NCBI GenBank assembly: GCA_964655705.1
Contig: CAZZPP010000001.1
Coordinates: 9,207-58,123, forward strand
Source: an uncultured Candidatus Saccharibacteria bacterium
Lineage (GTDB): Bacteria; Patescibacteriota; Dojkabacteria; SC72
DNA length: 48,917 nucleotides
Direction: 5' to 3'
A model generated the notes under the pieces. It was given only the letters and a program-made list of their open reading frames with translations, did not search any database and was not told where the DNA came from. The position numbers and the translations under genes are program-made. The number at the start of each line of letters is the position of its first letter. Within the stretch, counting starts at the first letter, position 1. Below, piece by piece: positions 8,292-48,726 of the stretch.

Positions 8292-8364
8292 TATATATCA
8301 TAATCATATGTTTTATCTATGTTATAGGTCAGGAATCTGTGCCTCTAATATGATATATTTTGAT

Positions 8365-9459
8365 ATGGATTACTCAAATGACAATGGGATGATTGCTGAA
8401 ATAGTAGAGTTAGGAAATAAACTCTCTTCTTCTAATACGCCTGTTGAATTAAAAGAACAGGTTATGCGTACCATACAAAGACTTGAGAGAATGGCTAAAT
8501 GGGGTAGCTATAGTTCTGAATTTGAGAGTGTAGATAAATATGTTGATTGGGTAACAAGAATACCTTGGGGAGTAGTTTCTGAAGACAATTTAGATATTAA
8601 GAATGCAAAAGAGCTCTTAGATTCTACTCACTATGGAATAGAAACAGTAAAGGAGATGATATTGGACTATATTGCAGCTATGCAATTAAAGAAGTTGGTT
8701 AAAGGGAAAGATAGTGTTGAAAAAACTCCTACTACTCCAACATTACTTTTCCTAGGTCTTCAGGGTATTGGTAAGACAACTATTGCTCAATCAATAGCAA
8801 AGGCTATGGGTAGGAAGTTTGCTAGAATATCTTTAGGTGCAGTCGGTGATGTAAGAACTCTAAGAGGTGTTCCTAGGCATGAGATAGATTCAGAACCTGG
8901 TCAAGTTATTAAGGCATTAGTAAGAACAGGTACTATGAATCCCGTTATATTGGTAGATGAAATTGAAAAGTCTAGTCAAAACAAGGGTGTCTTAAATGAT
9001 ATTATGGCTGCCCTTTTAGAAATCTTAGATCCTGAACAGAATTCTACTTTTGTAGACCACTATATTGATCATCCAGTAGATCTTTCTCAAGTCTTTTTCA
9101 TTTGTACAGCAAACAACTTAGGAGGGCTATCTGCTGCATTACTAGACAGATTAGAGGTAATCCGTTTTACTAGTTACAATGATCAAGAAAAAGAAGTTAT
9201 TGCAAAACAATATATTCTCCCTAAGGTTTTTGCTAGTATGGGATTGTCTGCTGAATATCTTCAGATATCTCAAGAGGTATGGCCACTTTTAATTAGGCCT
9301 GTTGGTTTTGATGCAGGAATACGTCAATTAGAAAGGAATATCTCTACGTTAGCCAGAAGTGCTGCTAGAGAGATTGTAAGTGGTAAGAGAATACCTGTTG
9401 TAATTACTCCTGAGAACTTAAAGCAGTATGTACTACCTGATCAGGGACCCCTAAGTTAG
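8365..9459 (+). CDS. Lon-family AAA+ ATPase lacking the C-terminal protease domain
   Basis: Lon-like W...IPW, L...HYG...VKE, Walker A GLQGIGKT, Walker B ILVDEIEK, ALLEILDPEQN, TAN, LLDRLE. Stop follows the lid helices. Start 8365 chosen because TG-A-TATATT lies 5 nt upstream (track start 8308). Confidence 0.85.
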   Translation: MDYSNDNGMIAEIVELGNKLSSSNTPVELKEQVMRTIQRLERMAKWGSYSSEFESVDKYVDWVTRIPWGVVSEDNLDIKNAKELLDSTHYGIETVKEMILDYIAAMQLKKLVKGKDSVEKTPTTPTLLFLGLQGIGKTTIAQSIAKAMGRKFARISLGAVGDVRTLRGVPRHEIDSEPGQVIKALVRTGTMNPVILVDEIEKSSQNKGVLNDIMAALLEILDPEQNSTFVDHYIDHPVDLSQVFFICTANNLGGLSAALLDRLEVIRFTSYNDQEKEVIAKQYILPKVFASMGLSAEYLQISQEVWPLLIRPVGFDAGIRQLERNISTLARSAAREIVSGKRIPVVITPENLKQYVLPDQGPLS

Positions 9460-9662
9460 ACTCCTCTAAATGGGTTTACTAATCTTAATGCTTTCTTTGC
9501 TCTATCTAGTGAAGGCTCAAAAGAAATTTTCTGGGTACTAGGTTTTACTGTTTTAACATTAGGATTATTTGTTAGAGGAATATTAGATGGTAGAACAGAG
9601 GAATCTGTTGTTGCATTGTATTGATATATTACCTTTCTATTGTTGTTTTGGTTGTTGTTCAT
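9456..9662 (-). CDS. Possible 68-aa small protein downstream of virB4-like gene
   Basis: Fills the 9460-9636 gap; its stop overlaps the convergent Lon-like stop (TTAG); codon choice resembles neighbouring minus-strand genes; no recognisable domain. Confidence 0.4.
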   Translation of the reverse strand: MNNNQNNNRKVIYQYNATTDSSVLPSNIPLTNNPNVKTVKPSTQKISFEPSLDRAKKALRLVNPFRGV

Positions 9663-47463: not shown

Positions 47464-48639
47464 AAACATTTTAAATATATACTCTCAATATTAATCCTCC
47501 TTTCCTCCGCTTCTTTCTCTTTGTATGCTACTGAAATCCTCCAAAGGGAAGAATTTGGGATGGATGAGACTCTGTCAACTCAGTCTGAGATATATTCATT
47601 ACCACAAAAGATATATATCACCCAATTAGATGGTTTTAATCATAACCTCTATGACAATCCACAGGAGTGGATTAAACTTCTCTACTATTACAGTGTAACA
47701 AGGTTAGGATTAAAGGATATCCCATTTAATTACTTAATTGACAGGAGTGGAAATATATATGAGGGAGCAAAGGGTGGTGATGGAGTGAACCCAGGATTAC
47801 AAGGAGGAGAGAATGTAGTATTAATTGGGATTATGGATGACAATACGAGTATATCTCCTAGGGCATCTTCTGCCTTAGTTTCATTAGTTGAGACCCTCTC
47901 TTACAGACATGGTATTCAGAGTGATAGCTGGGAACTAGTTAATCTCAAATTAAAAAGGAACGAAAATGCCGTATCATATCTTACATATACCAAATCAGAG
48001 TCAGTATTACTTAATTCAATTACTAATACATTGAGTGAAGTCCAGTGGTCTGATATTGAACATATGGACTACAAGGGTAGTATTGTATCTGTTGAATATG
48101 AGAAAGAGGTTGAGATAGGGAATAGGTTAAATGTTAAAGTAAAAATTAAAAACGAGAATGATTTTACTTGGTTAGGTGACTTAACATATATATATATTTC
48201 TACTTTAGACTCCGCTGAAAGTCCTCATGCAATTAATGGGGAGTGGGAAAGTTTTAGTAAGCCTACATATATAAAGGGTATGTATATTAAATCTGGTGAA
48301 ACAGGAGAGATTGAATTCCAACTAGAAGCTAAGAGTAAACCGGGTGATTACAAAGAGAGTTTCTACTTTATGAAATCTGCTGAAAATATTGTAGAAGGTA
48401 GTACATTTGATCTTGAATTTTCCATTGTTAAAGGAAACAACAACTTGATTGAGATTGTATCTCCACAATTTGGTTTCGCAAATATCAGAGATTGTAGATG
48501 GTACAGTTGCAAGGTACTTGAAGTTGCTAACGAGGGCCAGGTATATATTACTACTGGGAAAGAAGAGGGTTGGTATATTGTCAAATTCGGGGAAGAGAAG
48601 ATAGGTTGGGTATATCAAAAATATGCAAAAGAGATTTAA
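47461..48639 (+). CDS. Secreted Amidase_2/PGRP-like protein with Ig-like and SH3-like domains, probably catalytically degenerate
   Basis: Signal peptide; DIPFNYLIDRSGNIYEG; V.V..KN...FTW Ig-like domain; N.R....GWY.VKF....GWV SH3-like end. Confidence 0.75.
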   Translation: MKHFKYILSILILLSSASFSLYATEILQREEFGMDETLSTQSEIYSLPQKIYITQLDGFNHNLYDNPQEWIKLLYYYSVTRLGLKDIPFNYLIDRSGNIYEGAKGGDGVNPGLQGGENVVLIGIMDDNTSISPRASSALVSLVETLSYRHGIQSDSWELVNLKLKRNENAVSYLTYTKSESVLLNSITNTLSEVQWSDIEHMDYKGSIVSVEYEKEVEIGNRLNVKVKIKNENDFTWLGDLTYIYISTLDSAESPHAINGEWESFSKPTYIKGMYIKSGETGEIEFQLEAKSKPGDYKESFYFMKSAENIVEGSTFDLEFSIVKGNNNLIEIVSPQFGFANIRDCRWYSCKVLEVANEGQVYITTGKEEGWYIVKFGEEKIGWVYQKYAKEI

Positions 48640-48710
48640 CTCATAGCAGTTAGTTCATATATTTTCTACCTCATAACTTTCATAAACTGTATATAAAGTA
48701 ATACTTAGAA

Positions 48711-48726
48711 TATAATCGAGATTGTG
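48711..48726 (+). promoter_or_regulatory. -10 box directly upstream of pcrA (leaderless-type)
   Basis: TATAAT, 7 nt, GTG. Confidence 0.55.

Follow-up and report, generated by a model that had tools for sequence, protein, structure and literature searches.

In a 48,917-nucleotide stretch of DNA from a member of Candidatus Dojkabacteria (WS6), a lineage of the Patescibacteria or candidate phyla radiation (CPR), several genes carry promoter-like −10 boxes so close to their start codons that the predicted mRNAs would have no leader. The stretch (positions 9207–58123 of contig C1, hereafter the window) belongs to an assembly of 809 kb in 23 contigs, with a GC content of 34% and a rated completeness of 98%. 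Its assignment to the Dojkabacteria comes from nusA loci and from relatives compared at the level of whole genomes. Analysis of the whole assembly points to a genome in which Shine-Dalgarno (SD) pairing plays essentially no part in starting translation, which instead follows a leaderless track and a second track marked by a motif that we call the T box (TAAATT or TAATTT, 14–15 nt upstream of the start codon); we put the probability of this reading at roughly 0.85. Widespread leaderless mRNAs, which an earlier note on this DNA had proposed, are strongly supported by the positional peak of the box, its promoter character, its gene context, its conservation, and the lack of an SD signal. The broader proposal, that the Dojkabacteria replaced SD pairing with leaderless mRNAs and a new ribosome-binding signal, UAAAUU(U)/UAAUUU, stands in our judgement at about even odds.

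On the first track, a sigma-70-type extended −10 promoter (TGnTAtAAT), with a weak or absent −35 element, lies 5–8 nt before the ATG. Because the promoter is 5–8 nt upstream, RNA polymerase would start at or beside the A of the start codon and so produce a leaderless mRNA, which would be bound through its 5′-terminal AUG, by analogy with Actinobacteria and Deinococcus. A smaller set of genes, including dnaJ, has a spacing of 9–12 nt and would have a leader of 2–5 nt. On the second track, UAAAUU(U) or UAAUUU 14–15 nt before the AUG of other promoter-proximal genes and of many operon-internal genes would act on the mRNA as a non-SD signal, and in first genes it would stand at the 5′ end of a 20–30 nt leader.

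The CPR, which perhaps makes up a quarter of bacterial diversity, has stripped-down ribosomes and almost no cultured members, so that its way of starting translation is known from sequence alone. Leaderless initiation is a known mode in Actinobacteria and Deinococcus and is apparently unreported in the CPR: full-text searches for leaderless mRNAs in Patescibacteria, CPR, Saccharibacteria, or Dojkabacteria returned no paper that makes the connection, and no description of a TAAATT/TAATTT box was found. A study of CPR ribosomes treats loss of the anti-SD sequence only in some Parcubacteria (PMC9297842).

Seven box/start sites in the window had been listed earlier, and all seven were read at the spacings given for them. 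They are set out below together with an eighth, the divergent neighbour of dnaJ, which the earlier list did not contain.

8351–8367, plus strand: Lon-like AAA+ gene, predicted leaderless start; TG 8351–8352, A, TATATT 8354–8359, 5 nt, ATG 8365.
26168–26185, minus strand: alaS; TG 26185–26184, A, TATAAT 26182–26177, 6 nt, ATG 26170.
38671–38687, minus strand: rsmE; TG 38687–38686, A, TATAAT 38684–38679, 5 nt, ATG 38673.
39057–39094, plus strand: gene for an FN3/purple-acid-phosphatase-N protein; TTGATA 39057–39062, 17 nt, TATTAT 39080–39085, 6 nt, ATG 39092.
47446–47463, plus strand: 392-aa gene without known function; TG 47446–47447, T, TAAAAT 47449–47454, 6 nt, ATG 47461.
48711–48726, plus strand: pcrA; TATAAT 48711–48716, 7 nt, GTG 48724.
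30360–30377, plus strand: dnaJ, predicted near-leaderless with a leader of 2–3 nt; TAGAAT 30360–30365, 9 nt, ATG 30375.
30290–30304, minus strand: divergent neighbour of dnaJ, an additional leaderless candidate; TATATT 30304–30299, 6 nt, ATG 30292.

The identities of AlaRS, RsmE, the Lon AAA+ module, S15, and S20 were confirmed by NCBIfam (the alanine–tRNA ligase model scored above its cut-off), and the N-terminus encoded by pcrA presumably fits the PcrA/UvrD family. Rfam and tRNA scans of the window returned nothing relevant.

A hexamer coding model gave 689 genes of 80 aa or more in the assembly, and we set their starts by two rules, the first start codon of the open reading frame (ORF) or coding potential alone; neither rule used the upstream sequence. 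Positions of the box relative to the start codon were then counted against a background of twenty other 4-nt spacer windows. The histogram has the peak that had been predicted for 5–7 nt, observed here at 5–8 nt. Exact TATAAT was found at spacers of 5, 6, 7, and 8 nt before 21, 15, 2, and 14 genes, respectively, and before 0–6 genes at any other spacer, so that 52 genes carry it at 5–8 nt against a mean of 4.5 (maximum 16) in the background windows, an 11-fold enrichment. With one mismatch allowed, the box occurs at this spacing before 130 genes, compared with a mean of 33 (15–66) elsewhere, a net excess of about 100 genes; the leaderless track would thus take in roughly 100 of 682 genes. The peak holds under both start rules, and no comparable peak was found before internal in-frame ATGs.

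The same upstream regions show almost nothing of SD pairing. The frequency of G does not exceed 0.16 at any upstream position, and SD words at a spacer of 6–9 nt form no clear peak (about 3% of genes), nor was GGAGG-like enrichment seen 5–10 nt upstream. Leadered and internal genes do not use SD sites and have the TAAATT box at 14–15 nt in their place; an A-run peak at −9 to −3 in the style of Bacteroidetes was likewise not found. The assembly contains no 16S gene. In all ten Dojkabacteria relatives examined, the 16S rRNA keeps the anti-SD sequence CCUCC (ACCUCCUUUC), and the ten genes end in ...GAAUUACCUCCUUUC with the anti-SD intact. Single SD-like sites do occur: an HU-like gene about 30 kb past the end of the window (MATMLKKDLVDSVAK..., C1:88416) has a perfect AGGAGG followed by 9 nt and an ATG, and GAGG precedes a few ribosomal-protein genes (rplW, rpsC, rplP).

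The T box emerged from a positional k-mer scan of the upstream regions, which took the place of a de novo motif search; our own expectation-maximisation search (random starts, zero or one site per sequence, positions −34 to −1) did not converge on localized motifs. The strongest start-anchored k-mer was AATTT at −20 to −16 (p = 4e-38), and TAAATT and TAATTT at a spacer of 14–15 nt outrank TATAAT. A strict T box precedes about 100–115 genes, among them tuf, fusA, rpsJ, rpsS, rpsH, and rpoA, and it occurs in all operon contexts: in 113 cases, 16 boxes lie inside the upstream coding sequence and 19 coincide with the upstream stop codon. The notion that the T box is merely the TAA stop of the upstream gene is therefore true in 19 of 113 cases only. 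A palindromic DNA site is excluded by the strand asymmetry of the motif (AATTTT 50, AAAATT 11). Within the window, the following examples were found.

31575–31598, plus strand: T box of nusA; TAAATT 31575–31580, 15 nt, ATG 31596.
38694–38761, plus strand: complete leadered unit; TTGACA 38694–38699, 18 nt, CATAAT 38718–38723, 15 nt, TAAATT 38739–38744, 14 nt, ATG 38759.
6402–6424, plus strand: operon-internal T box; TAAATT 6402–6407, whose TAA is the upstream stop, 14 nt, ATG 6422.
4789–4794 and 42077–42082: two further T boxes.

In most of about 50 Dojkabacteria loci, TAAATT or TAATTT stands 14–17 nt before the nusA ATG while the flanks vary, and among reciprocal best hits the T-box class is kept with an odds ratio of 12 (p = 6e-10). 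Its position and conservation suggest that the T box is probably read on the mRNA as a non-SD signal for translation, one that would recruit the ribosome or set its place. Its reader may be the S1 homologue that the genome encodes, a candidate protein of 409 aa with four S1 domains.

The T box could instead be a −10 element that gives leaders of about 8 nt and has no part in translation. It does fit TANNNT, and before nusA only about 35 nt separate the upstream terminator from the ATG. We regard this alternative as unlikely, because the T box has neither TGn nor a −35 element and differs in sequence from the promoter consensus, and because the two motifs never occupy each other's position. Of 113 T boxes, 35 fall within the coding sequence of the upstream gene or form its stop codon. 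Genes with non-coding upstream sequence carry a separate, true TGnTATAAT box 5–19 nt upstream of the T box, which would therefore stand at the 5′ end of a 20–30 nt leader. The unit at 38759 reads in the same way, with promoter and T box as separate elements and a predicted leader of about 29 nt that has the T box close to its 5′ end. At nusA itself, loci carry TAGTAT between the terminator and the T box.

The terminator upstream of nusA is an intrinsic hairpin (ggtgag...ctcacc followed by T8; window 31540–31595) about 35 nt before the gene, and it is kept in about 40 genomes. In most relatives TAGTAT follows it directly (TAGTAA in the window), and a promoter therefore probably overlaps the T tract of the terminator.

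We also considered whether the T box, as a non-SD signal, might pair with rRNA. The linker directly 5′ of the anti-SD in 16S rRNA (positions 1529–1534) is GAAUUA, a sequence complementary to T boxes of the form UAAUUU, in all 10 Dojkabacteria examined, and 21 of the 26 other CPR genomes compared have GGAUCA there. Such pairing is unlikely, because a spacing of 14–15 nt misfits the geometry of an SD helix. One CPR genome with the linker GGAAUA (G065, of which 221 kb were examined) has a GC content of 27% and a low ORF density and probably uses a recoded stop codon.

Two alternatives concern the boxes of the leaderless class. In the first, the TATAAT-like box 5–8 nt upstream is no promoter but serves, in the manner of Bacteroidetes, as an AU-rich non-SD ribosome-binding site on mRNAs with ordinary leaders. 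It gains some force from the T box, a clear case of another AU-rich motif anchored to starts in a genome without SD sites, and from the presence of the box in 17% of genes that have a same-strand neighbour 0–39 nt upstream. This reading is nevertheless very improbable. When boxes were aligned on the hexamer, T and G at the TGn positions reached 0.58 and 0.39 against backgrounds of about 0.35 and 0.12, and a weak −35 element was visible at a 17-nt spacing (T 0.54/0.47, G 0.27). Upstream of some 30 stand-alone tRNA genes an identical TGnTAtAAT is found, 8–13 nt from the mature 5′ end; as these genes are not translated, the promoter consensus is defined independently of translation. The same TGnTATAAT also recurs at variable distance upstream of the T-box leaders, and divergent intergenic regions of 61–85 bp leave no room for a second promoter.

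The distribution of the box agrees with a promoter. There are 73 copies of TG.TATAAT in the genome, 5 of them within coding bodies, and its density on the two strands of coding sequence is 0.005 and 0.003 per kb compared with 0.217 per kb elsewhere, a difference of at least 40-fold. A box at a spacer of 5–8 nt was found in 28% of genes with a divergent upstream neighbour (n = 192), in 17% of those on the same strand as the upstream gene with a gap between them (n = 395), and in 5% of those that overlap the upstream gene (n = 77), the last being the background level (2–8% in control windows). The leaderless signal thus concentrates at the first genes of operons and not at internal genes. Of the TGnTA[TA]AAT boxes, 66 fall in the 100 nt preceding a coding start, 25 of them at a spacer of 5–8 nt, 7 at 9–12 nt, 2 at 13–20 nt, and 20 at 21–40 nt, so that 38% of the strong promoters within this distance are at leaderless spacing. 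Promoter-to-start distances are bimodal, with either no leader or a leader of 15–33 nt. The suggestion that leaderless starts are a major initiation mode can be kept in a narrower form: the class takes in about 14–16% of all genes and a quarter to two-fifths of the promoter-proximal ones, it is not the sole mode, and the T-box class is larger.

Strong TGnTATAAT boxes also lie 5–8 nt before the ATG of ORFs shorter than 80 aa that the gene caller skipped (C2:-23042, C4:+55423, C2:-21670). One of the skipped ORFs begins MWQCPKCKREFQK and resembles a zinc ribbon, and further leaderless small genes probably exist.

In the second alternative, the boxes are promoters and the starts are misannotated, with translation beginning at a downstream ATG behind a normal leader. 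The start codons are computational calls, and the Lon-like ORF has three in-frame ATGs within 60 nt (8308, 8350, and 8365). The start at 8365, although it is not the first in-frame ATG, is backed by comparison with relatives: stop codons interrupt the upstream frame in several of them, and for distant orthologues the alignment does not begin before about residue 21 of the longer ORF, so 8365 is the right start. For alaS, rsmE, pcrA, and dnaJ, alignments begin at residues 1–5 and similarity ends directly upstream; AlaRS, S15, and S20 match their family profiles from the first residues; and the peak was seen under two independent start rules. General misplacement of the starts is thus highly improbable, slightly more so than a ribosome-binding role for the boxes.

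From its start at 8365, the Lon-like gene (8365–9459) encodes 364 aa and contains only the Lon AAA+ and lid module, without the protease domain; its promoter is preceded by the conserved block TGTTATAGGTCAGGAA. The pcrA gene is broken by a 100-N scaffold gap after ...NILALTFT, just past the end of the window (from about 48918), and its apparent change of frame is this assembly gap and not a frameshift.

Relatives keep the boxes in place. For rsmE, alaS, and the Lon-like gene we collected 30 orthologous loci each, covering the genus, its family, and further families in the order, and in all three sets the box-to-start distance is kept (about 5–8 nt) while the letters of the spacer vary freely. 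Upstream of alaS, TGnTATAAT or TAAAAT lies mostly 6–8 nt from the ATG; TGnTATAAT stands 5–7 nt before the ATG or GTG of rsmE in about 25 of 30 loci; and the Lon-like gene has a conserved unit (TGATATATT, 5–6 nt, ATGGAT) that is kept across the genus and the family. The remaining sites were read in G023, a relative in another genus. There the orthologue of the gene at 39092 has TTGCTA...TATTAT, 6 nt, ATG; that of the gene at 47461 has TG-A-TACAAT, 6 nt, ATG; pcrA has TATAAT, 7 nt, GTG; dnaJ has TAGAAT, 10 nt, ATG; and the divergent neighbour of dnaJ has TAATAT, 6 nt, ATG. Membership of the leaderless class is kept between reciprocal best hits, with an odds ratio of 4.0 (p = 8e-5) for a genome of the same family and 3.3 (p = 0.03) for one of another family, and the peaks of both the leaderless box and the T box recur in these two genomes, which are relatives of other genera.

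Chance occurrence of functionless TANNNT-like hexamers, to be expected to some extent at 34% GC with upstream regions of about 80% A+T and one-mismatch boxes before 15–66 genes (mean 33) in any 4-nt window, is already refuted by the histogram and by conservation and has a negligible probability, given the 11-fold excess of exact TATAAT at 5–8 nt, the enrichment of TGn, the dependence on gene context, the retention of position despite turnover of the spacer, and the retention of the class (odds ratio 4, p = 8e-5). All that the leaderless reading predicts at the level of sequence was borne out.

Several points weigh against the two-track reading and should be set beside this evidence. Exact TATAAT drops to 2–3 genes at spacer 7, a dip that relatives do not share. 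At 34% GC, about a quarter of the one-mismatch boxes at 5–8 nt (33 of 130) are expected by chance, and single weak boxes are therefore uncertain. The combination of a T box and an ATG is not avoided inside genes (55 cases, controls 43–82), a comparison that is uninformative on function. Starts come from a simple gene caller, though the peak survives both rules. Finally, motif positions, promoter character, context, and conservation are what the data show directly; where transcription starts, how ribosomes are loaded, and what the T box does and what reads it are inferred.

To see how far the two signals extend, we surveyed 400 kb from each of three genomes in other CPR families:

G043 (36% GC): TATAAT/TAAAAT peak at a spacer of 6–9 nt, with a weak SD signal.
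G081 (63% GC): SD signal, with a few TAGAAT boxes at a spacer of 8 nt.
G064 (37% GC): neither signal, and an A-rich −7 signal instead.

Because a box peak is present in other CPR families, leaderless starts are predicted to extend beyond the Dojkabacteria. No T box was found in the 400 kb of any of the three genomes, and in this small sample the T box appears confined to the Dojkabacteria.

Two other short motifs were seen near start codons. TATACA or ATACAT is enriched 2–3 nt before starts, with 19 of 64 occurrences in one 3-nt window (examples in the window lie upstream of 29479 on the minus strand, 42097, and 2728), and may be a start-codon context signal. ACTGCC or CTGCC lies 0–12 nt before the start of 16 genes, with ACTGCC in 13 against 1.5 expected; examples outside the window, among others, are C12:+6106, C10:-9748, C4:+21325, and C3:+27582, and orthologues carry the motif too, for instance the homologue in G023 that corresponds to the gene at 20470.

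If the two-track reading is correct, a third large bacterial clade joins Actinobacteria and Deinococcus-Thermus in the leaderless group. Gene finders trained on SD sites will mis-set starts and small genes in metagenome-assembled genomes of Dojkabacteria, and the Lon-like gene is an example. For expression in the CPR, or of CPR genes in other hosts, the reading suggests a design rule of TGnTATAAT, 6 nt, and ATG (promoter unit TGATATAAT, 6 nt, ATG), or alternatively a promoter followed by UAAAUUU, 14 nt, and AUG. As a candidate new signal for recruiting ribosomes, the T box is itself open to experiment.

The closest known counterpart of the leaderless track is group C of the GeneMarkS-2 classification, which holds 1028 of 4769 bacterial genomes and has a Pribnow box 6–8 nt from the start (PMC6028130; see also PMC3160421, PMC5397173). 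Group C genomes, mainly of Actinobacteria and Deinococcus-Thermus, have 25–50% leaderless transcripts (PMC6028130). Like members of this group such as Mycobacterium tuberculosis (PMC6028130, PMC3160421), the Dojkabacteria genome has a Pribnow box near the start of first genes, AUG or GUG starts, and no SD sites at those genes. The remaining genes of group C use SD sites, whereas the Dojkabacteria genome carries the TAAATT box 14–15 nt upstream; it also differs in lineage and in being a 0.8-Mb genome with a GC content of 34%. Group B, the Bacteroidetes group of the same classification (PMC6028130), keeps the anti-SD in 16S rRNA, as the Dojkabacteria relatives do, and resembles the genome in leaving SD sites nearly unused and in having one AU-rich motif before both first and internal genes. 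In contrast, the Bacteroidetes motif is A-rich and lies about 3–9 nt from the start, and that of the Dojkabacteria genome is UAAAUU(U)/UAAUUU, sharply placed at 14–15 nt, and occurs beside a leaderless class.

Extended −10 promoters of the sigma-70 type share with the boxes of the leaderless class the sequence TGnTAtAAT, confirmed here by the enriched TG, as well as a weak or dispensable −35 element and the presence of the same box before tRNA genes. They differ only in closeness to the mature 5′ end, which here is 5–8 nt for coding genes and 8–13 nt for tRNA genes. Among translation signals, AU-rich leader elements bound by S1 and phage enhancers such as the T7 gene 10 “epsilon” (UUAACUUUA) are the nearest relatives of the T box. 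The likeness lies in an AU-rich, single-stranded element upstream of the usual SD position and in an encoded S1 homologue (references on S1 in PMC5397173). Unlike these elements, the T box is constant both in sequence and in its spacing of 14–15 nt, and it would replace the SD site rather than assist it, with S1 as its candidate reader.

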